Source of the DNA: Gammaproteobacteria bacterium
Lineage (GTDB): Bacteria; Pseudomonadota; Gammaproteobacteria; GCA-001735895
NCBI GenBank assembly: GCA_029864185.1
Contig: JAOTTY010000002.1
Coordinates: forward strand, 1-47,773
DNA length: 47,773 nucleotides
Reading direction: 5' to 3'
Of this stretch, positions 15,187 to 40,010 are shown one piece after another. The notes below the pieces were generated by a model, which saw only the letters and a list, made by a program, of their open reading frames with translations, was not told where the DNA came from and made no database searches. Position 1 is the first letter of the stretch. Each line of letters begins with the position of its first letter. A program made the position numbers and the translations under genes.

Positions 15187-16293
15187 CTACCTGATCTGCT
15201 GGTACAACAGTTTGAGAAACTCGGCACCCTCCGGAGTAGTATCGAGATCGCCCTGTTCGTTTTCGATATCGACACGGGTCAGTTCATGGCTCTCCTCGGA
15301 GAGCACCAGCGTCAGTTTCTTTTGCCGCTTTTGGTCCGACGATCCAAAAAATGAAAAGAAACCACCATCGCCGGCACTTTCGATCACTTCGGTGGCCACG
15401 GTTATCACCCCTTCCTGGCCAAACCCGATCCCGGTATTGAAATCGGCACTGACGATACTGAAATTCAGACGCTCGAGCTCGTGATAAACCCGATTCCATG
15501 CAATCTGATAGGAATCCTTCAGGATCAGAAAAGGCGAACGCTCCTCGGTATCGAATTGCAGGAATGCCCTGGGCTTGAATAATTTGGCGCTGGCCAGCTG
15601 CTGTTCCACCTGCGACCGCTGCAAGCCCAGGTAAATCATCAACCTCGACAGCATCTCGATTTCAAGCTCCGGCTCCGGTTGACGAAAACGCCACTGGTTG
15701 TCCTCGTCTTCGAACTCCGTCACGCTCCTGTCCTCGCCCTCGAACACGTAGACATACTCGGTACCCCGATGGACGATGTAGATCCGGTTTCTGCCCTGCT
15801 CGCCGCGCTCGATCCGGGTTCTGAACTGATCCTGGCTCGCGCTCAGGTCATCGTTGCCAAACAGGCGTGAAAGCCAGCCGCCCGATTCGTCATTGGTCCC
15901 TACCTTTCTGAAGACCCATTCCGTCTGCATCACCCCGATGACGGGCTCCTCGATGCTGAGACGATAACCCTCGGAAGCCCAGAAATTCTTGACCTGCTGG
16001 TACAGGTTTTCGATCGGCTCCTCGACGCTTAACCAGTACAGTCCGGCACTGCCCTCGAGGCGAATCGAGTCGACCTTGGCCAGCACGGGAATCCTGTCAC
16101 GGACACTGTCGTCGTCACCGGAGATACCGTCCGGCAACTCGAAGCCGGATTCAACTTCATCCGCGACCAGGTCGGGAGGCAGCTCGAGACGTTTCTCCAG
16201 CGTCACTTCCAGGTAGCGTTGATCGAGATCGCTCTGGCAGCCGGCTATCAGGGCGGCCAGGACCAGCAGCGCCGCCGCTTGTATATCTCTCAT
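15187..16293 (-). CDS. bamC: outer membrane protein assembly factor BamC (lipoprotein)
   Basis: The internal ATG at 16293 gives MRDIQAAALLVLAALIAGCQSD, a lipobox signal peptide. The ATGA overlaps the dapA stop. The dapA-bamC order is conserved. Confidence 0.8.
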   Translation of the reverse strand: MRDIQAAALLVLAALIAGCQSDLDQRYLEVTLEKRLELPPDLVADEVESGFELPDGISGDDDSVRDRIPVLAKVDSIRLEGSAGLYWLSVEEPIENLYQQVKNFWASEGYRLSIEEPVIGVMQTEWVFRKVGTNDESGGWLSRLFGNDDLSASQDQFRTRIERGEQGRNRIYIVHRGTEYVYVFEGEDRSVTEFEDEDNQWRFRQPEPELEIEMLSRLMIYLGLQRSQVEQQLASAKLFKPRAFLQFDTEERSPFLILKDSYQIAWNRVYHELERLNFSIVSADFNTGIGFGQEGVITVATEVIESAGDGGFFSFFGSSDQKRQKKLTLVLSEESHELTRVDIENEQGDLDTTPEGAEFLKLLYQQIR

Positions 16294-17165
16294 AGCGCAC
16301 CGCAGGCTACCAGCGCCTGTCTGAGCGGCGCCTGATGTTCCTCCGAGAGCACGGTCATCGGCAGCCGCAAGTTCAGCTCTCCGAATCCCATTTGCGAAAC
16401 CGCCCATTTAACCGGGATAGGATTGGACTCGATAAACAACAAGCGATGCAGATCGGCAATTTCGGCATCCGCCGCACGCGCCTCCTGTTCCTTACCCTCC
16501 GCGGCGAGGTGGCACATTCTGGCCATTTTGGCCGGTACGACATTAGCGGTGACCGATATCGCGCCATGGCCTCCATTTAGAATAAACTCGCAGGTCGTCG
16601 AGTCGTCACCGGTGAGCAACGCAAAATCGTCGCTTACCTGGCGCTTGATATCGGCAAGCCGCTCCATGCTGCCGGTGGCTTCCTTGATGCCAACAATATT
16701 GTCGACCCTGGACAACTCGGCAACCGTGTCCGCCAGCATATCGCATGCCGTACGCCCGGGAACATTGTAAAGAATCTGGGGGATATCGACGGCACCGGCG
16801 ATCGCCTGATGATGCAGGATCAAACCTTTTTGCGTCGGTTTATTGTAATAGGGAGTCACCAGCAACGCGGCATCGGCCCGGCTCTCTTTGGCGCAGCGGG
16901 TAAGTTCTATGGCTTCCGCGGTCGAATTAGCACCGGTGCCTGCAATCATCGGCATGCGCTGGCCGATAATTTCGTAGCTGCGTTGTAGCAATTCGCAGTG
17001 CTCGCGCGGGCTTAGCGTGGCCGATTCGCCGGTGGTGCCGGCAATAACCACGGCATCCGTAGCCTCGCGCACATGAAAATCGATCAGGGCCTCGAGTTGC
17101 GTGTAATCAACATCGCCGTTACTCAGCATTGGAGTGACCAATGCCACGATACTGCCTTTAAACAT
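16290..17165 (-). CDS. dapA: 4-hydroxy-tetrahydrodipicolinate synthase
   Basis: MFKGSIVALVTPM...AGTTGESATLS...YNKPTQ...GIKEATG, and the length is typical of the family. Confidence 0.95.
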   Translation of the reverse strand: MFKGSIVALVTPMLSNGDVDYTQLEALIDFHVREATDAVVIAGTTGESATLSPREHCELLQRSYEIIGQRMPMIAGTGANSTAEAIELTRCAKESRADAALLVTPYYNKPTQKGLILHHQAIAGAVDIPQILYNVPGRTACDMLADTVAELSRVDNIVGIKEATGSMERLADIKRQVSDDFALLTGDDSTTCEFILNGGHGAISVTANVVPAKMARMCHLAAEGKEQEARAADAEIADLHRLLFIESNPIPVKWAVSQMGFGELNLRLPMTVLSEEHQAPLRQALVACGAL

Positions 17166-24771: not shown

Positions 24772-26538
24772 TCAGCCGTCGTAACGTGGCGGCGCAACCT
24801 TGAGGACTTCCTCGATCGTGGTCATGCCGCGCGCAACTTTCTGCGCGCCCGCCAGGTTGAGCGGTTTCATGCCCTGCCTGATAGCCGCCTTGCGAAACCT
24901 GACCAGGTCGAAATTATCGGAAACCTCCTGCTTCAGGCTGTCGCCAAGCGGCATCATTTCGTAGATGCCGATGCGGCCGATAAAACCCGTCTGCCGACAC
25001 TCGAGACATCCGTCGGCAGCGGCGATTTTTTCCGGTGGTGAAGTGGTCCATGGCTTGATCAGGGCCTTCCAGTCGAGCAGGTCGAAGCCGGTCTCATGCT
25101 TGCAGTGAGGGCACAGGGTACGCACCAGCCGCTGGGCGACCACCCCGATCAGGGTCGCGGAAATCAGGTAGGGCGGGACTCCGATCTCGGTAAGTCGCGC
25201 GATCGCGGATGGCGCATCGTTGGTGTGCAGGGTCGATAACACCAGGTGCCCGGTAAGCGCGGCCTGTACCGCCATTTCTGCGGTTTCCCGGTCACGAATT
25301 TCACCAATCATTATGATGTCGGGATCCTGGCGCAGCAGGGTCTTTACCCCGCTGGCGAAATCCAGGTCGATATTGTGCTGCACCTGCATCTGGTTGAAGC
25401 TCGGCTCCACCAGCTCTATCGGATCCTCGATGGTACAGACGTTTACCTGCGGGGTCGCCAGCTGTTTGAGACTGGTGTAGAGGGTGGTCGTTTTTCCCGA
25501 CCCCGTCGGCCCGGTCACCAAAATGATACCGTAGGGCCGCGTAATCATTTCGTTCCAGATATCGGATTCGGTTTTTTCGAGCCCCAGCGCCGTGAAATTC
25601 TTGACCAGCACCTCCGGATCGAATATGCGCAGCACCAGCTTTTCGCCGAAGGCGGTCGGCATGCTCGACAGCCGCAGCTCGATTTCGGCGCCACCCGGTG
25701 ACAGGGTCTTGATCCTGCCGTCCTGGGGTTTGCGCTTTTCGGCGACGTCGAGACGTCCCATGATCTTGATTCGGCTTATCACGGCGGCGGTGATGTTGGC
25801 GGGTATCTCGTAGACCTGGTGCATGAAGCCGTCGATACGAAACCGCACGTTGCCTTGCGAGCGGCGGGGTTCGATGTGAATATCGCTGGCACGCTGGCTG
25901 AAGGCATACTGCATCAACCAGTCGACGATACTGACGATATGCTGATCTTCGGCGTCCACCTTGCCGGTCTTACCCAGCTCGATCAATTGCTCCAGGTTCT
26001 GAATATTGCCCGGCATATTCACGGCGGACTTGTTGCCGGCACCCTCCATCGCCTTGCTGACGCTGTAAAACTCGACCAGGTAATTCTTCAGCTCTCGTGG
26101 ATTGGCGAGTACCGTCTTGATCGGTTTTCTGACGATACGATCCAGTTCCTCGATCCACTCCAGGTTGTATGGATCGGTCAGTGCGACCACGATTTCGCTA
26201 TCGGTCACCTTGACGGGCAGTATGCTGAAACGCGACGCATAAGCGTAGGACATGATCGAGGTGCAGGCGGTAACGTCCATCTTAAGCGGATCGAAATGAT
26301 ATCGTTCCTGCCCGGATTGCCCGGCCAGCCAGTCGGTTAGCATATCTAGCGAGAGTAACTGTTGAGGTTGTGACTTGTTACTCCACTGCCGGCTGGCAAT
26401 GATTTCGAGCGGGTGCAGATTTTTCCTGTCCTTGGCGGAGACCAGCGAGGTGATCATACTGGCCTTGTCCTGCTCGACGATATCCTGCGATACCAGTTGA
26501 TCGAGTATCCCTTCCAGGGTACAGACGAGTTTAGTCAC
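24772..26538 (-). CDS. GspE/PulE/PilB-family secretion ATPase (orphan)
   Basis: Motifs: a T2SSE_N-like region (FSILPVKVTDSEIVVALTDPYNLEWIEEL), Walker A GPTGSGKTTT, Walker B DPDIIMIGEIRD, His box LVLSTLHTNDA and a tetra-Cys motif (CPHC...CLEC). Confidence 0.92.
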   Translation of the reverse strand: MTKLVCTLEGILDQLVSQDIVEQDKASMITSLVSAKDRKNLHPLEIIASRQWSNKSQPQQLLSLDMLTDWLAGQSGQERYHFDPLKMDVTACTSIMSYAYASRFSILPVKVTDSEIVVALTDPYNLEWIEELDRIVRKPIKTVLANPRELKNYLVEFYSVSKAMEGAGNKSAVNMPGNIQNLEQLIELGKTGKVDAEDQHIVSIVDWLMQYAFSQRASDIHIEPRRSQGNVRFRIDGFMHQVYEIPANITAAVISRIKIMGRLDVAEKRKPQDGRIKTLSPGGAEIELRLSSMPTAFGEKLVLRIFDPEVLVKNFTALGLEKTESDIWNEMITRPYGIILVTGPTGSGKTTTLYTSLKQLATPQVNVCTIEDPIELVEPSFNQMQVQHNIDLDFASGVKTLLRQDPDIIMIGEIRDRETAEMAVQAALTGHLVLSTLHTNDAPSAIARLTEIGVPPYLISATLIGVVAQRLVRTLCPHCKHETGFDLLDWKALIKPWTTSPPEKIAAADGCLECRQTGFIGRIGIYEMMPLGDSLKQEVSDNFDLVRFRKAAIRQGMKPLNLAGAQKVARGMTTIEEVLKVAPPRYDG

Positions 26539-26601
26539 GGGTTAATTCTGGCATAATTCTTTCCTGCATATTAGCAGGATTTCACCGGCTTGCATGGGCG
26601 A

Positions 26602-27084
26602 TTATTGAGAAGAGGTTAACTGCGGCTGCCAGTTTTGAATAAACTGCTCGATCATTTCGCGCGTCACGGGTCCTACCTGCCGTGCCACCACGTCACCCTG
26701 CGGGGATACCAGGAAGGTGGTCGGCAATCCCGGAATTAGTCCAAGTTCCGATTGCTGGGCAGGCTTCGACGTAAAAACCGGGTAAGTAATGAAATAATCC
26801 TCGAGAAAATCCTGCAATCTCTGCTTGCCGATCAGTTCGGTATTGATACCGAGAACCATCGCATCTTTATCGACATGGGCGTCGTGAAACGACTGCAGCT
26901 CGGGCATTTCGACGATGCAGGGCGGGCACCAGGTCGCCCAGTAATTGACCACCAGCCACTTGCCCTGGTAACTGCTGATATTGACCCTGTTGCCGTGGAT
27001 ATCCTGCAGCGGCATATCGACCGCCCGGACCGCAAGGGGCAACGCCAGTACCACCAGCAGCACAGAAAGAAAACGTTTCATCAT
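26602..27084 (-). CDS. TlpA-family thiol:disulfide oxidoreductase (exported thioredoxin-like)
   Basis: Signal peptide MMKRFLSVLLVVLALPLAVRA and redox motif WATWCPPC. Confidence 0.88.
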   Translation of the reverse strand: MMKRFLSVLLVVLALPLAVRAVDMPLQDIHGNRVNISSYQGKWLVVNYWATWCPPCIVEMPELQSFHDAHVDKDAMVLGINTELIGKQRLQDFLEDYFITYPVFTSKPAQQSELGLIPGLPTTFLVSPQGDVVARQVGPVTREMIEQFIQNWQPQLTSSQ

Positions 27085-27234
27085 TGAGTAATCGTCATAT
27101 TGTTTTATGAAAGTATAATTTGATTTTAGTTCAAAAGTTTACAACTTGATCGACTAGTTAGCCTTCGGCACGGGCAGGCGCTCACGAGTTCGGGAAATCC
27201 GTTCACGATCAACCCGTCTGGATAGACGGACTCC

Positions 27235-27264
27235 AAAAAAAAGCCCGCGAAACGCGGGCTTTTT
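27235..27264 (-). terminator. intrinsic (bidirectional-type) terminator after the LysM lipoprotein gene
   Basis: AAAAAAAA-GCCCGCG-aaa-CGCGGGC-TTTTT. On the minus strand 8 T follow the stem. It lies about 20 nt past the stop at 27282. Confidence 0.8.
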
Positions 27265-27281
27265 CGATTGAAGGGTCCTGC

Positions 27282-27944
27282 CTATTGCGCCAGGTAATCC
27301 AGATCCGATGCCTCGGTTACGCCGATCGACCAGGCACCCCGATTACGGGCGTGCTCGATTGCCGCGGCGCGCTCGGGTCCCTTGGCTTTCGGGATGTAGA
27401 AATACTGACCCGGAAAGATCAGGTCGGCGTCCTTGATCTGGCCCGAATTGGTCTTGTAGATCAGCGGCCACATATAGGGATCGCCGTAGATGGTACTTTG
27501 CCCGGCTATGGTCCACAGGTTATCGCCGCTAACCACCAGGTAGCCACCAAGGTACGGAGAGGTATCGGCCATTTCGGTGCTTGCGGGCTCCGGGGCTGTC
27601 TCCACTGCCACGGGTTCGCTTTGCAGCGCAGCGATTGCCGCCGCCGCGGCTTCCTCGGCCTTGTTGGCGAGAATCTTCGCGCGAACGTTTTGACAATCGG
27701 CTGCAGCTTGCTCAGCTTCCTCGATTATCTTTGCGTTTTCTTCCCATTCGGCACCCAGGTTTCTGGCGCGAGCGTTTTTCAGCTTGGCGGCGTAGATCGC
27801 ATTGCGGACTTCAGGAGTGGCACCCTGACATTCCTCTTCGACTGCAACTTCGGTCATCTCTGTAGTCGACTGTTGACAGCCTGCGATTATGCCTGAGGTC
27901 AAAACGGCAATAGCCGCGACCTTAAGGAGTTCTGTTGGTTTCAT
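27282..27944 (-). CDS. LysM domain lipoprotein
   Basis: Lipobox (LTSGIIAGC|QQ). The middle is Ala/Glu-rich. The C-terminus is a LysM domain (YLVVSGDNLWTIAG...IFPGQYFYIP). Confidence 0.85.
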   Translation of the reverse strand: MKPTELLKVAAIAVLTSGIIAGCQQSTTEMTEVAVEEECQGATPEVRNAIYAAKLKNARARNLGAEWEENAKIIEEAEQAAADCQNVRAKILANKAEEAAAAAIAALQSEPVAVETAPEPASTEMADTSPYLGGYLVVSGDNLWTIAGQSTIYGDPYMWPLIYKTNSGQIKDADLIFPGQYFYIPKAKGPERAAAIEHARNRGAWSIGVTEASDLDYLAQ

Positions 27945-28216
27945 CTATTGTTTTCTCCGAGAACTTTTAAGAATTGGTAGCTTCGTAATTATGGTAGCCC
28001 ATTTTGCCAAGAAGACTACATTGATCAACCCCTTAGAGCAAGTTTTTAATGTAAATATTACTCATTTGGCCCTGATTATAGCCCAGATTTGAACCTTTTC
28101 ACGGAACTATGAAAACAGCCCTGTCAGGAAGCCCTATCGTGTGCCTTGTTAACGCTATTGATAATGCAGCTGCGATATTGTACAACATCGCCAGTTCGGT
28201 CGCCAGAGACCAGGAA

Positions 28217-28576
28217 ATGAATAATCACAAGCTCGTCATCTACCATAATCCCAGGTGTAGCAAATCCCGCGAAACGCTGCAATTGCTGGAAGACCGGGAA
28301 TTGAACCCCGAGATCATCAATTATCTCGATGAGCCGCCGTCACCGCGGGAGCTTAAGAAAATCATTGCACTGCTGGGGGTCACGGCCCGGGACCTGATGC
28401 GCACCACCGAACCCGTCTACCGGGATGCCGATCTCGACGACGACAGCCTTTCGGACGAGGAAATTATCGAAGCGATTTGCGAGTACCCGGCCTTGCTGCA
28501 GCGACCCATCGTCGTTTTCGGTGACAGGGCGGTGATTGGCCGACCACCGGCCAGGGTCCTTGATATCGTTGCATAA
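28217..28576 (+). CDS. arsC: ArsC-family (glutaredoxin-type) arsenate reductase-like protein
   Basis: MNNHKLVIYHNPRCSKSRETLQLL contains the catalytic Cys context. The ATG is at 28217. The upstream 36 codons of the track ORF are rejected. Confidence 0.85.
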   Translation: MNNHKLVIYHNPRCSKSRETLQLLEDRELNPEIINYLDEPPSPRELKKIIALLGVTARDLMRTTEPVYRDADLDDDSLSDEEIIEAICEYPALLQRPIVVFGDRAVIGRPPARVLDIVA

Positions 28577-29156
28577 AATCCTGATTGTTTACTACAGCCG
28601 GCACGGCAGCGTCGCCCGTATGGCCGAACAGATCGGCCTCGGAGTCGATTCCAACGAGGACTGCGAAGCGGTGCTGCGCAGTTTACCGTCGGTTTCCGCG
28701 GACAGTGAACAAAGCATCGCATCGATTCCGCAGGCAGGCGTCCCCTATGCCACGATTTCGGACCTCGAATCCTGTTCCGGCCTGGTGCTGGGCAGCCCCG
28801 GTTACTTCGGCAATATGTCCTCGGCCGCCAAGTATTTTCTCGACCAGACCAGTTCGCTGTGGCTTGCCGGCGGCATGATTGGCAAACCGGGGGGCGTTTT
28901 TACCGCGACCTCGAGCATGCATGGCGGACAGGAGACCGTGCTCACCAGCATGATGCTGCCCTTGCTGCATCACGGCATGCTGGTGGCCGGTATACCCTAC
29001 TCAGAACCGGCGCTCAACCAGACACGCTCCGGGGCGACCCCCTACGGCGCGAGCCACGTTGCCTGGCAGCAGGGCCAGGCTCTGAGCGAGCACGAGGTCT
29101 CGGCCTGCAAAGCCCTGGGCAGGCGTATCGCCGACCTCGCCTGCCGGCTCGGGTGA
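28569..29156 (+). CDS. wrbA: NAD(P)H:quinone oxidoreductase WrbA (flavodoxin-like)
   Basis: (M)HKILIVYYSRHGSVARMAEQI...GSPGYFGNMSSAAKYFLDQT...GGQE. The proposed TTG start at 28569 overlaps the arsC end by 8 nt, so the start is uncertain. Confidence 0.85.
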   Translation: MHKILIVYYSRHGSVARMAEQIGLGVDSNEDCEAVLRSLPSVSADSEQSIASIPQAGVPYATISDLESCSGLVLGSPGYFGNMSSAAKYFLDQTSSLWLAGGMIGKPGGVFTATSSMHGGQETVLTSMMLPLLHHGMLVAGIPYSEPALNQTRSGATPYGASHVAWQQGQALSEHEVSACKALGRRIADLACRLG

Positions 29157-29509
29157 GAGCGGCGGCGTTCGTGCTGCATCCGCTCAAAATTATCAGCCTG
29201 GTCTGCTGGCTGGGATTATTCGGTTTTCAGTCAAGTCTGCTCTGGCCTGCATCGGGGGTAAGCTATTATTGGGGGTTGCTGCTTGCGATACCCTTGCTGA
29301 TACCGCTACCAGGCCTGCTCGGCGGCAAGCGCTACACCTACCAGTGGATTGGCTTCCCGATGCTCGTCTATTTCTGCGTCGGTATCAGCGAGCTCGCGAC
29401 GAATCCGCAGTTGCGGGTCTATGGTCTTGGCACCACGCTGTCGAGCACGATCCTGTTCCTGGCGAGCATCTACTATGCCCGCTACCTCGGCTTGCGGGAA
29501 AGGCGGTAA
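29153..29509 (+). CDS. DUF2069-like small membrane protein
   Basis: Hydrophobic 118-aa product (LKIISLVCWLGLFGF...YYWGLLLAIPLLIPLPGLL...YQWIGFPMLVYFCVG). GTGA overlaps the wrbA stop. It occupies the position of the DUF2069 gene after wrbA in Pseudomonas. The track ORF start at 28859 is an out-of-frame overlap of wrbA. Confidence 0.6.
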   Translation: MRAAAFVLHPLKIISLVCWLGLFGFQSSLLWPASGVSYYWGLLLAIPLLIPLPGLLGGKRYTYQWIGFPMLVYFCVGISELATNPQLRVYGLGTTLSSTILFLASIYYARYLGLRERR

Positions 29510-37323: not shown

Positions 37324-37373
37324 TTACCTGACCCTGATTGAATTTACTGGAAATATCACTAAGTTATAGTGTC

Positions 37374-37886
37374 ATGGCGCATTCTACTAAAAAACTGGGC
37401 ATGATGTTCACTGCCGCGGGCTGGGTGCTCGGTTTTTTACTGCTGGCGCTGGTTTTTTCCAACATCCTCGACCGGCAAAATAATCCAAACCGCTCCGTGT
37501 CGACGCTGCAAACCGGGGCTTTTCAGGAAGTGGTGCTGACGCGAAGCCGCAACGGGCACTATGTTTTCGACGGCGAGATCAACCATCAAAAGGTAACATT
37601 CCTGGTCGATACCGGGGCCACGACCACCGCAATCCCTGCCGAAATGCAGCGCGCGCTGGGGCTGAAGGCCGGCCCCGCGACCTCGGTATCCACCGCGAAC
37701 GGCGTAACCACCGCCCGTCTGACCCGCCTGGACCAGCTAGCTATCGGCGATATCGAGCTTTTCGATACCAGTGCGACCATCATCTCGGGTATGGGCGTCG
37801 ACGAGGTCCTGCTGGGCATGAACGTGCTGAAGCATTTCGAGCTGGTGCAGCGCGGTAACGAACTGATTATCCGGCAATACCGGTAA
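37374..37886 (+). CDS. membrane-anchored retropepsin-like (clan AA) aspartic protease
   Basis: N-terminal TM segment (MMFTAAGWVLGFLLLALVF) and active-site motif FLVDTGATTTAIP. I chose the ATG at 37374. The track start at 37338 is a TTG. Confidence 0.75.
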   Translation: MAHSTKKLGMMFTAAGWVLGFLLLALVFSNILDRQNNPNRSVSTLQTGAFQEVVLTRSRNGHYVFDGEINHQKVTFLVDTGATTTAIPAEMQRALGLKAGPATSVSTANGVTTARLTRLDQLAIGDIELFDTSATIISGMGVDEVLLGMNVLKHFELVQRGNELIIRQYR

Positions 37887-38033
37887 AATAATGCCTTCCG
37901 CGGTTTGATTTTTCACGATTCCGCGAAAATTTTTACCTTTTTCTGAACTTTCTCGAAACTCGTTTTCTCTAAGCACGCGTAATGGGGGAAATAACCACTA
38001 CAAATATAGGTTTTCAAACTTGAGGATAATTTT

Positions 38034-38285
38034 ATGATTACAGCTAAAAAAACTACCGGAGTCGCCCTTGCCGCAGCCGCGGCTGCCATGTTTGCCGTTG
38101 CGCCGATGAGCGCGAACGCGGCCGAGACGGCGGGCAAATGCTTCAACGTCAATTCATGCAAGGGCACCAGCGCATGCGCAACCGCCACTACCAGTTGCGC
38201 CGGACAGAACTCTTGCGCCGGTCAGGGCTGGGTCAAGCGCACCAAGTCAGAATGCGAAGCAGCGGGCGGCAAGTTCGAAGCCTGA
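38034..38285 (+). CDS. bufA: Sec-exported Cys-rich RiPP precursor peptide (bufferin BufA-like)
   Basis: A GAGGA Shine-Dalgarno sits 7 nt upstream. The signal peptide is MITAKKTTGVALAAAAAAMFAVAPMSANA|AE. The 54-aa core has 6 Cys (KCFNVNSCKGTSACATATTSCAGQNSCAGQGW...SECE). It lies immediately upstream of DUF692 and DUF2063 genes. Confidence 0.7.
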   Translation: MITAKKTTGVALAAAAAAMFAVAPMSANAAETAGKCFNVNSCKGTSACATATTSCAGQNSCAGQGWVKRTKSECEAAGGKFEA

Positions 38286-38304
38286 GCCTTTTTCTCGGCT
38301 AAAG

Positions 38305-38335
38305 AAAAATGCACCGACCGGATCGGTGCATTTTT
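38305..38335 (+). terminator. hairpin / candidate partial terminator between the precursor and modification genes
   Basis: AAAAATGCACCGA-ccgga-TCGGTGCATTTTT is a 13-bp perfect stem with a T-run. It lies 20 nt after the bufA stop and 48 nt before the bufB start. Confidence 0.5.
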
Positions 38336-38382
38336 ATGTCCGATCGATACAATTGATTTCCCTCGATCCGTGATGCTCGTCT

Positions 38383-39219
38383 ATGGCTGAATCCGCACAA
38401 AAACCCTTCCTCGGCTTTGGCCTGGGTCTGCGTGCGGAGCACTATAAGGACATCCTCGAACGCAAGCCGAGGGAAATCGACTGGTTCGAAATCATCAGCG
38501 AAAATTACATGATCGATGGGGGCAAGCCGCTTTATTATCTCGACGCGATACGCCAGGATTACCCGATGGTCATGCACGGCGTGTCGATGTCGCTGGGCAG
38601 CATGGACGACCTGGACCTCGACTACCTGAAGCAGTTGAAATCCCTGATCGAACGCGTCCAGCCGCGCTGGTACTCCGACCACCTGTGCTGGACCGGTGTC
38701 GACCACAGAAACATGCACGATCTGCTGCCCTTGCCCTACACCGAGGAGGCGATACGCCATGTCGCAGATCGTATCTCCAGGGTGCAGGATTTCATTGGTC
38801 GCCAGATGCTGATCGAAAACCTGTCCAGCTACGTTACCTATTGCGACGACACAATGCCGGAGTGGGAATTCCTGTCGGCGATTGCGGAACGTGCCGACTG
38901 CTACCTGCTGCTGGATGTCAACAATATTTACGTCAGCAGTTACAATCATCATTACGATCCGATCGAATACCTCGAAGGCGTGCCCGGATCCCGCGTCTGG
39001 CAGCACCATCTCGCCGGCCACAGCAACGAGGGCAACCTGATAATCGACACCCATGACGATGACATCATCGATCCGGTGTGGACCCTGTACGAGGAAACCG
39101 CGAGGCGTCTCGGTCCGGTTTCGACCATGATCGAGCGCGACGGCAATATCCCGGATCTCGACAGCCTGCTGCTCGAACTCGAGCGGGCGCGCAGCATCGC
39201 TGCACCTTTTTACCGGTGA
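38383..39219 (+). CDS. bufB: DUF692-family multinuclear non-heme iron oxidase (MNIO; BufB/MbnB-like)
   Basis: Family hallmarks run along the whole length: GFGLGLRAEHY, WFEIISENYM, HGVSMSLGS, SDHLCW, LLPLPYTEEA, ENLSSYV, EWEFL, LLLDVNNIYVSS, HLAGH, IDTHDD, MIERD. Confidence 0.88.
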   Translation: MAESAQKPFLGFGLGLRAEHYKDILERKPREIDWFEIISENYMIDGGKPLYYLDAIRQDYPMVMHGVSMSLGSMDDLDLDYLKQLKSLIERVQPRWYSDHLCWTGVDHRNMHDLLPLPYTEEAIRHVADRISRVQDFIGRQMLIENLSSYVTYCDDTMPEWEFLSAIAERADCYLLLDVNNIYVSSYNHHYDPIEYLEGVPGSRVWQHHLAGHSNEGNLIIDTHDDDIIDPVWTLYEETARRLGPVSTMIERDGNIPDLDSLLLELERARSIAAPFYR

Positions 39220-39224
39220 GTTCC

Positions 39225-40010
39225 ATGATCCGGCTGCGAGAATTACAACGACGATTTCAGGATTACCTGATTGGCGCATCCGACGATATCGAGCGCGACA
39301 TCGTCGGCAGCGACAACGCGCTCGCCGAGCACCGCCTCGCCACTTACTACAACGCGTATCGCATCCGCCTGATAGACTGCCTGGCGACAGACTATGCCGC
39401 AGTACAGAATTATCTGGGTCGCGAAGCCTTCGAGGAACTGGCGTTAGCTTATCTCCGCGAGTACCCGTCTACGCACCCGTCGGTACGCTGGTTTGGCAAA
39501 TCCCTGCCCGAATATCTGCGCACCCGTTACCAAGGCGAGGAGCGTGATTTCCTGCTCGAGCTGGCGCGCTACGAGTGGGCACAAACGATGATATTCGATG
39601 CCGCCGATAGCGCTGCGCTGGTTCAGCTCGACGACATGGCGCAGTTGCCGCCGCAGGACTGGCCGGATCTGCGCCTCCGCTTCAAGCCGGCGCTTACCTG
39701 GCTGGACCTGCACTGGAACGTGCCGCCGATAGAGCACGCGCTGAACACGGGTGACGAACCGCCGCGCCAGCAGCGCCTCGAACATCCGCAACGCTGGCTA
39801 TTGTGGCGCCGCGAGCTGAAAATCCACTGGCGCTCGCTCGAGGTACACGAGGCCTGGGCGCTGCAGCAGGCCGTCGACGGGGCGAATTTTGCCGCGATCT
39901 GCGAAGGCCTGCTCGAATGGGTCGACGCCGAACAGGTTGCGCCGGTCGCGGCCGGATTTCTCAAACAATGGATCAGCGACCAGCTGATCGTCAGCCTCGG
40001 CGATGACTAA
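39225..40010 (+). CDS. bufC: DUF2063-family partner protein (BufC-like)
   Basis: MIRLRELQRRFQDYL...LATYYNAYRIRLIDCL...YLGREAFEELALAYLREYPS is a typical DUF2063 N-terminal domain. The ATG at 39225 is 5 nt after the bufB stop. The track start at 39078 lies out of frame inside bufB. Confidence 0.8.
   Translation: MIRLRELQRRFQDYLIGASDDIERDIVGSDNALAEHRLATYYNAYRIRLIDCLATDYAAVQNYLGREAFEELALAYLREYPSTHPSVRWFGKSLPEYLRTRYQGEERDFLLELARYEWAQTMIFDAADSAALVQLDDMAQLPPQDWPDLRLRFKPALTWLDLHWNVPPIEHALNTGDEPPRQQRLEHPQRWLLWRRELKIHWRSLEVHEAWALQQAVDGANFAAICEGLLEWVDAEQVAPVAAGFLKQWISDQLIVSLGDD

Follow-up and report, generated by a model that had tools for sequence, protein, structure and literature searches.

Bufferins (captophorins) are, to our knowledge, the largest group of RiPPs (peptides that are synthesised on ribosomes and modified after translation) made by multinuclear non-heme iron oxidases (MNIOs); a handful of them have been studied, and we know of none among these from the gammaproteobacterial lineage treated here. 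The buf2ABC cluster of Caulobacter vibrioides (CCNA_03001-02999, BUF_6/12Cys) encodes a six-Cys precursor with a Sec signal, an MNIO and a DUF2063 protein, and it does so without DoxX (Leprevost et al. 2024, PMC11626156). The mass of its product is 18 Da below that of the core peptide, which corresponds to a loss of 4 Da at each of the four central Cys residues and a disulfide between the first and the last Cys; it absorbs near 305 nm, and either of the Caulobacter buf clusters protects the cells from copper (PMC11626156). Antoine et al. catalogued thousands of Buf2 and reported that the bufABC order is strictly conserved and that Buf2 clusters contain no sigma/anti-sigma genes, while Buf1 clusters usually carry DoxX and sigF/nrsF (PMC12452194). 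Formation of 5-thiooxazoles is common to all PME1-dependent MNIOs that have been characterised to date, and the resulting products bind Cu (PMC13097082). In the present work we analysed a predicted Buf2-type cluster, bufABC, at positions 38034-40010 of a 47,773-nucleotide stretch of DNA from an uncultured marine gammaproteobacterium (GTDB lineage GCA-001735895; contig JAOTTY010000002.1 of assembly GCA_029864185.1), referred to below as the window.

The cluster consists of three genes on one strand, in the order bufA, bufB, bufC, with intergenic gaps of 97 nt (bufA-bufB) and 5 nt (bufB-bufC):

38034-38285, plus strand: bufA, 83 residues, Buf2-type bufferin precursor
38383-39219, plus strand: bufB, 278 residues, MNIO, predicted bufferin maturase
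39225-40010, plus strand: bufC, 261 residues from the ATG at 39225, MNIO partner protein

A first-pass annotation, made from the letters of the sequence, had listed the same three open reading frames (ORFs) with the same gaps and had proposed a minimal bufferin-type RiPP cluster composed of a signal-peptide precursor, an MNIO and a DUF2063 partner. This proposal was upheld, as the curated equivalog models were matched above their cutoffs and the fold of the partner protein agrees. Judged by these matches, the three genes are an ordinary member of the known and widespread bufferin-2 family. The word minimal is right insofar as the three genes come without DoxX, but this is the normal Buf2 layout, as in Caulobacter buf2ABC. 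We consider it very likely that the locus is a functional Buf2-type bufferin (captophorin) cluster, in which Cys residues of BufA are oxidised by BufB-BufC before Sec export to give a periplasmic metal-binding mini-protein.

BufB matched the Pfam family PF05114 (MbnB_TglH_ChrH) with 375.7 bits over profile positions 2-262 of 263, in line with the earlier view of the middle protein as DUF692 from end to end. Against the NCBIfam model NF050167 (MNIO_BufB) it scored 380.9 bits (cutoff 310), and it stayed under the cutoffs of all four of the HvfB, MbnB, ApyH and ChrH models, with 294 against 360 for HvfB and 66.2 bits against 325 for MbnB (TIGR04159). Among solved structures, 3BWW is nearest in sequence (E 1.3e-49). 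MbnB binds its iron through H54, H90, E133, D163, N166, H192, D208, H210 and E239 (PMC9060507), and these residues align with H65, H100, E145, D178, N181, H209, D222, H224 and E251 of BufB. Relatives of BufB were collected by a scan of one genome per species, in which 225 were found, and the best 80 loci (referred to by L numbers) were kept. All nine iron-ligand positions are invariant in the 81 sequences formed by the window protein and these 80 relatives. By its model scores and these alignments, BufB is a BufB-type MNIO with an intact iron-ligand set.

The elements of bufA that are relevant for its translation and export are as follows:

38022-38026, plus strand: Shine-Dalgarno sequence GAGGA, 7 nt ahead of the ATG, with GAGG nearly invariant across a 45-locus alignment
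38034-38120, plus strand: signal peptide, with predicted cleavage after Ala29 (ANA|AE)
38121-38282, plus strand: core of 54 residues with six Cys, following the predicted cleavage site

BufA matched the NCBIfam model NF050166 (Cu_RiPP_BufA2) with 78.8 bits (cutoff 60) over residues 10-81 of 83. The first-pass annotation had named the DUF2282/bufferin-precursor families for comparison; this is corrected here, as BufA gave no Pfam hit at E <= 0.01 and belongs to the BufA2 (BUF_6/12Cys) family, for which Caulobacter buf2ABC is the appropriate comparator. With this result and its six Cys residues, a DUF2282/Buf1 precursor identity was rejected. A precomputed PF10048 match exists for some homologues, so the BufA2 and DUF2282 precursor families are related. 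The good Shine-Dalgarno sequence, the Sec-type signal and the Cys/Gly/Ser/Ala-rich core of 54 residues, all part of the earlier description, were likewise recovered. Inspection of the N-terminus revealed Lys-Lys, a 17-residue hydrophobic stretch rich in Ala, Val and Phe, and Ala-Asn-Ala before Ala30, with no lipobox; together with the conservation in 70 homologues this points to a leader that is a Sec-type signal. The core contains 6 Cys, 10 Ala, 7 Gly, 6 Thr and 5 Ser. Of the six Cys columns, five are invariant in the 70 homologues, and at least 90% of these retain Cys42; each of the 45 related loci has the same six Cys.

That the small ORF is a real gene under purifying selection, and not a chance reading frame, follows from the predominance of third codon positions among the substitutions: in 31 related loci the differences from the window at codon positions 1/2/3 amount to 130/168/1185, and 1033 of 1284 differing codons are synonymous (251 non-synonymous). 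In the structural model of BufA, which is of low confidence (predicted local distance difference test, pLDDT, 62), Cys36 is part of a strand and Cys74 of a short helix, in agreement with what has been published on bufferins; a Foldseek search of the PDB with this low-confidence model gave no match. The exact BufA sequence was not found in a collection of 15 billion proteins that does include BufB and BufC from this contig, so bufA was probably not called in the source annotation. The database labels of the relatives read 'hypothetical', 'DUF692 domain-containing' or 'DNA-binding domain-containing', and an annotation pipeline based on NCBIfam would name BufA and BufB automatically.

BufC matched PF09836 (DUF2063) with 74.7 bits over residues 6-98, in agreement with the N-terminal DUF2063 domain noted earlier. 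When its sequence was compared with the PDB, either alone or as a 39-sequence profile, no significant match was obtained, and only the comparison of folds was productive. The AlphaFold2 model of BufC (mean pLDDT 86.0, predicted template modelling score 0.79) found 3DEE (NGO1945, E 2e-5) as the top Foldseek match in the PDB, followed by TglI (8HCI_A, 8HI7_A). The next matches were the peptide-binding RRE domains of lasso-peptide B1 proteins, at non-significant E values of 0.23-4.1. NGO1945 (3DEE) is the DUF2063 partner of a gonococcal MNIO, and TglI is the partner of TglH. The model supports, without proving, the view of BufC as a two-domain partner (DUF2063 and a C-terminal RRE-like domain) that would present the precursor to the oxidase.

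The three proteins are embedded in a conserved chromosomal context. The closest 47 loci (71-86% BufB identity) belong to uncultured marine Gammaproteobacteria, including the Gamma 3 endosymbiont of Olavius algarvensis. Where the flanks are long enough, the gene order of this clade is aroC (minus strand), a TIGR02281 aspartic protease, bufA, bufB and bufC, with gcvP next in the nearer loci; the position of the protease and bufABC beside aroC, usually with gcvP, is thus fixed in about 45 species of uncultured marine Gammaproteobacteria. Identity in L001-L031 reaches 87-96% for the precursor, 80-86% for BufB and 62-74% for BufC, which makes BufA the best conserved of the three proteins within the clade. 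A BufA-like ORF was detected by tblastn in 73 loci, and in 72 of these, all but L065, it lies directly upstream of the BufB gene, even where the flanks are wholly different.

The gap between bufA and bufB contains two further elements:

38305-38337, plus strand: intrinsic-terminator-like hairpin, composed of an A-tract, stem TGCACCGA, loop CCGGA, stem TCGGTGCA and TTTTTAT
38348-38353, plus strand: -10-like hexamer TACAAT, 10-15 nt after the T-run in most close relatives

The hairpin folds with -21.8 kcal/mol (z-score -3.7 against shuffled sequences), and a hairpin with a T-run is present 41-59 nt after the bufA stop codon in all 46 sequences compared (the window and 45 loci). As 25 distinct stem arms occur across these 46 sequences, the stem has undergone compensatory change. 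A simple consensus scan for terminators missed this hairpin, probably since its stem runs into A/T tracts, and it was found by direct folding and comparison across loci. The TACAAT hexamer is a candidate, and an uncertain one, for an internal promoter or start for bufBC; no convincing -35 element was seen at it. No obvious Shine-Dalgarno sequence precedes bufB. The ATG of bufC is preceded by GGTGAG and lies 5 nt after the bufB stop codon, and both features suggest that bufC may be translationally coupled to bufB.

These elements bear on whether the three genes work together. Should BufA be an ordinary disulfide-rich periplasmic protein and the DUF692/DUF2063 pair act elsewhere, the strong conserved terminator between bufA and bufBC and the -10-like hexamer behind it would be readily understood. 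A terminator after the precursor gene is, on the other hand, a common RiPP device for setting the ratio of substrate to enzyme, and the constant place of a BufA-like ORF directly ahead of the BufB gene in 72 of 73 loci with differing flanks speaks against such a separation, as does the lack of any other Cys-rich candidate substrate nearby. Stand-alone bufferin precursor genes are found in other genomes, but the bufABC order is reported as strictly conserved (PMC12452194). We regard the split of the locus into unrelated genes as very improbable and treat the three genes as one Buf2-type unit.

An apparent exception to the strict bufABC order was seen in L065:4761-5201, from a metagenome-assembled genome (MAG) of the Granulosicoccaceae, in which a BufA-like ORF with a lipobox is located downstream of bufC. 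Enlarged precursors occur in the distant relatives L055, L058, L060 and L079, and also in L061, L063, L066, L068, L071, L074 and L076-L078. Some of them reach 10-12 Cys through extra internal repeats of the C-K-[TV]-A type in one domain, and others contain two tandem 6-Cys domains in one protein.

The region upstream of bufA contains a putative promoter and a small RNA structure:

37944-37972, plus strand: predicted extracytoplasmic function (ECF) sigma-E/AlgU-type bufA promoter, TGAACTT-N17-TCTAA
37944-37950, plus strand: -35 element TGAACTT, with a T-rich stretch directly upstream
37968-37972, plus strand: -10 element TCTAA, after a 17-nt spacer
37979-38001, plus strand: small stem-loop GTAATGG ... 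CCACTAC at the predicted 5' end of the bufA mRNA, weak (about -5 kcal/mol)

The promoter motif sits 62 nt upstream of the start codon of bufA. The window has a single match to GAACTT-N16/17-TCTAA, where 0.02 would be expected by chance. Of the 44 clade loci (L001-L044) in which bufA was detected, 43 have the motif 78-100 nt ahead of the bufA ATG; in the remaining one, L032, only 57 nt of sequence are available upstream of bufA. In 471 kb of clade loci the strict motif occurs 40 times, always before bufA and nowhere else, and in the 45-locus alignment the TGAAC and CTAA columns are invariant while the spacer varies. The motif was not found at the more distant Buf2 loci. The consensus of RpoE/AlgU promoters has been given as GGAACTT, a spacer of 15-19 nt (16 preferred) and TCAAA, with an A/T-rich upstream region (PMC1312014), and also as GAACTT-16/17-TCCAAA/TCTACA (PMC4336711). 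The bufA motif agrees with such promoters in its -35 and -10 elements, its spacer and its A/T-rich upstream region, and from this resemblance we lean slightly towards sigma-E itself as the factor that drives bufA. A SigF-type promoter (GTAACC-N16-CGAA) was rejected: one non-conserved match with two mismatches overlaps the region, and 56 such matches exist in the window. No rpoE gene is present in the window. The window does contain a dapA-bamC (NlpB) pair at 15187-17165 on the minus strand; BamC is a member of the sigma-E regulon in E. coli and Shewanella.

With the usual discriminator of 5-6 nt, transcription would start at about 37978-37981, which is the foot of the 37979-38001 stem-loop. 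In single-sequence folds this stem-loop recurs in most of the 45 relatives, with paired changes such as TGG/CCA to CGG/CCG and TGGT/ACCA to TAGT/ACTA, whereas RNAalifold on a MAFFT alignment gave no consensus pairs for the hairpin of the 5' untranslated region (UTR). The 5' UTR stem-loop is thus an unproven observation on single sequences. Searches of Rfam, with the whole window at the gathering threshold and with the locus at E <= 1, returned nothing relevant, and neither the 5' UTR nor the terminator is a known RNA family. The first-pass annotation had called the regulation of the cluster uncharacterised; the conserved sigma-E-type promoter motif and the internal terminator seen in the sequence narrow this statement.

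Several observations weigh against the reading of the locus as a functional Buf2 cluster of the known kind. The central Cys pattern of BufA is CK, CA, CA, CA, where a typical Buf2 has CK at all four sites, and BufB has Gly254 after Glu251-Arg252-Asp253, where Cys-Lys-type MNIOs have Asp. HvfC, the sole NCBIfam partner model that BufC matches, is reached with 56.8 against a cutoff of 142, and the structural model of BufA is of the low confidence mentioned above (pLDDT 62). Within the 47.8-kb window there is no copper-resistance or DoxX gene. The sigma-E assignment is one of motif resemblance, and no other GAACTT...TCxAA is found anywhere in the window, even before dapA-bamC. Finally, the peptide and its whole clade are known from sequence alone.

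The first two of these points set the cluster outside the Cys-Lys subgroup, which is recognised by Lys after the central Cys and Asp after Glu-Arg-Asp. In Cys-Lys MNIOs an Asp follows the catalytic Asp, a contact between this Asp and the substrate Lys has been modelled, and Lys-Cys (EGKCG) enzymes have Phe at the same place (PMC13097082). Both 3BWW and MbnB have Phe at the position equivalent to 254 of BufB. Of the 81 sequences, 57 have Gly at this position, 18 have Asp and 6 have Ala, and the Asp254 enzymes are mostly paired with CK-rich precursors, with L050, L060 and L074 as exceptions. The link between position 254 and Cys-Lys sites is a trend and an unproven lead, as shared ancestry confounds it. 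We take the Cys-Lys feature as that of a typical subgroup (PMC13097082) rather than as family-defining, and the window clade as a variant in this respect.

One MAG, JBNKDE01, carries two Buf2 clusters, L039 and L057. The aroC-linked L039 encodes a BufB with Ala254 and a precursor with two Cys-Lys sites, and L057 encodes a BufB with Asp254 and a lipoprotein-type precursor with a lipobox and four Cys-Lys sites.

Because of the Cys-Ala sites and Gly254, the number or positions of the modified Cys could differ from those of Caulobacter Buf2. The modification might then be unlike that of the published Buf2, with fewer than four heterocycles, with oxazolone-thioamide pairs as in methanobactin, or with the single Cys-Lys site as the only target. 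Ala after three of the four central Cys and Gly254 in place of Asp speak for such a departure, and both the residues flanking Cys and the position equivalent to 254 affect the activity of FonB; FonBC, however, tolerates most substrate variants and prefers small flanking residues, which fits Ala (PMC13097082). The distinction between 5-thiooxazoles and oxazolone-thioamides has been contentious, although related products were recently reassigned to 5-thiooxazoles (PMC13097082). BufB itself scores well above the BufB cutoff and far below that for MbnB (66 vs 325), and the retention of the four central Cys over a wide divergence (three invariant, Cys42 in at least 90%) argues that each of them is functionally needed. 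For these reasons we find a modification of another type quite improbable and lean, by analogy with Caulobacter Buf2, towards the modification of exactly four Cys in BufA.

The surroundings of the cluster bear on its physiological role. The genes on either side and in the rest of the window have core functions (including aroC, gcvP, sdaA, purM, purN, hda, pmbA, yjgA, proS, dxs, ffh, trmD, rimM), as the earlier description of a purely housekeeping neighbourhood had it; gcvP starts 112 nt after bufC, and among the 47 window ORFs scanned none encodes DoxX, a sigma factor or an anti-sigma factor. The same machinery could therefore serve a role other than that of a copper-detoxifying buffer, since the locus lies within core housekeeping synteny and not in a metal-resistance island. 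It could handle another thiophilic metal (Hg, Au, Ag, Cd), defend against oxidative or hypochlorite stress, or, in worm symbionts and in marine sediments rich in sulfide, provide a constitutive store or chaperone for copper in the periplasm. The envelope-stress (sigma-E) type of the promoter motif, in place of the copper-responsive SigF/NrsF type, and the departure of BufA from the usual Cys-Lys motif would suit such a role. For some bufferins, fusions of MerC with Buf2 that occur in mercury loci hint at metals other than copper (PMC12452194), and related clusters respond to gold and hypochlorite (references in PMC13097082; PMC7907618). Every characterised member of the class, however, binds copper (PMC11626156; PMC13097082), nothing in the window indicates a specific alternative metal, and a core-genome position is compatible with a copper function. 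A different role thus seems unlikely to us, and copper is probably the physiological ligand of the BufA product. The earlier statement that the product and the metal specificity of this particular peptide are uncharacterised still holds.

Based on the described systems, we infer the chemistry, the modified positions, the export, the copper binding and the identity of the sigma factor in the following scheme. An envelope-stress promoter of the sigma-E/AlgU type would drive bufA, and the terminator behind the gene would yield a short and abundant precursor transcript of about 360 nt, while the expression of bufBC would be weaker and would depend on read-through or on a weak promoter inside the cluster. 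Translation of bufA would give the precursor of 83 residues. Before export, the RRE-like domain of BufC would hold the peptide for the BufB-BufC complex, and the iron centre of BufB with O2 would carry out a four-electron oxidation of each target Cys to a 5-thiooxazole ring. By analogy with Caulobacter Buf2, Cys42, Cys48, Cys55 and Cys61 would be converted and Cys36 and Cys74 would form a disulfide. Export by Sec and a signal peptidase cut after Ala29 would then release a periplasmic mini-protein of 54 residues that may sequester Cu(I)/Cu(II). The calculated monoisotopic mass of the reduced, unmodified core is 5376.38 Da, and that of the predicted modified core, with four losses of 4.03 Da and one disulfide, is about 5358.24 Da.

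More speculatively, the core genome of this clade, whose members are marine gammaproteobacteria of sediments and worm symbionts, may contain a fixed variant bufferin, characterised by Cys-Ala sites, a matching Asp-to-Gly change in the enzyme and sigma-E wiring instead of SigF/NrsF. The peptide would then be a permanent part of the metal or redox homeostasis of the periplasm, with a modification or metal preference unlike those of Caulobacter Buf2, rather than an accessory copper resistance. We put this forward as a tentative and rather doubtful extension of the data.

The gene directly upstream of bufA, at 37338-37886 on the plus strand, encodes a TIGR02281 clan-AA (retropepsin-like) aspartic protease with an N-terminal membrane segment and is present in all clade loci. 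It was considered as a fourth gene of the cluster and rejected, as it stays by aroC despite insertions of 0.8-4 kb before bufA in L041, L046 and L047. It is not present at any Buf2 locus outside the clade, and its place next to bufA looks like synteny rather than cluster membership. Several other window genes, all unlinked to the buf genes, were noted in passing:

24772-26538, minus strand: type IV pilus ATPase TfpB
26602-27084, minus strand: TlpA/ResA-like thiol:disulfide oxidoreductase
27282-27944, minus strand: LysM-domain protein
28109-28576, plus strand: glutaredoxin-type arsenate reductase, the ORF having about 40 extra N-terminal residues
within 24772-29509: DUF2069 membrane protein

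The bufferin family is no longer obscure, now that thousands of Buf2 have been catalogued (PMC12452194) and NCBI provides models by which BufA2 and BufB are named. The present analysis leaves the understanding of the family unchanged and provides a solid annotation with a few leads. What it adds is the clade-level picture, composed of core synteny, a constrained precursor, a candidate sigma-E promoter, a covarying terminator and the Cys-Ala/Gly254 variant. For probing substrate specificity the locus offers a well-defined natural variant, in which the target Cys are followed by small residues and the enzyme has Gly at a site that has been implicated in contact with the substrate. The sigma-E-type promoter together with the precursor-specific terminator gives the first concrete regulatory hypothesis for a Buf2 cluster without a neighbouring sigma/anti-sigma pair. 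Fixation in the core genome of about 45 species, a gutless-worm symbiont among them, suggests that the peptide matters in metal- and sulfide-rich sediments.

Compared with Caulobacter buf2ABC, the cluster has the same gene order without DoxX, the same combination of a Sec signal with six Cys, and matches to the same BufA2 and BufB models, and the conversion of four central Cys with a disulfide between the first and the last is predicted for both. It differs in the length of the core (54 residues vs 61), in Ala instead of Lys after three of the four central Cys, and in residue 254 of BufB, a Gly in place of the Asp of the Cys-Lys-type enzymes. Its promoter motif, TGAACTT-N16/17-TCTAA, is of the sigma-E type and not the Caulobacter SigF motif, GTAACC-N16-CGAA (PMC3511200), and the host is an uncultured marine gammaproteobacterium in which the cluster lies between aroC and gcvP.

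With the Buf1 clusters (buf1ABCD and also the gig operons of Cupriavidus and Legionella) the locus shares the MNIO with its DUF2063 partner and an exported Cys-containing precursor, and 5-thiooxazole chemistry and a function in copper stress are predicted to be shared as well. The Buf1 precursor is a DUF2282 protein with four Cys, in contrast to the six Cys and the missing DUF2282 match of BufA, and the DoxX and sigF/nrsF genes that are usual in Buf1 are not found here. The oxazolin (HvfABC), fontiphorin and gonophorin systems supply the nearest solved relative of BufB (3BWW) and the nearest fold for BufC (3DEE), and they belong with the bufferins to the proposed RiPP class of captophorins (PMC13097082). 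Their precursors carry EGKCG repeats of the Lys-Cys type, whereas BufA has no EGKCG; the window proteins reach 294 against 360 for HvfB and 56.8 against 142 for HvfC; and Phe follows Glu-Arg-Asp in the EGKCG captophorin enzymes, where BufB has Gly.

Methanobactin (MbnABC) is related through the enzyme superfamily, the iron-ligand set and the oxidation of Cys to a copper-binding heterocycle, the last being a prediction for the present cluster. With the MbnB model BufB reaches 66 (cutoff 325), the precursor MbnA carries a leader peptide without a Sec signal, and the partner is MbnC in place of a DUF2063 protein. Methanobactin is a secreted chalkophore made under copper starvation and contains oxazolone-thioamide pairs, unlike the predicted BufA product, for which Caulobacter Buf2 is the closest described counterpart.

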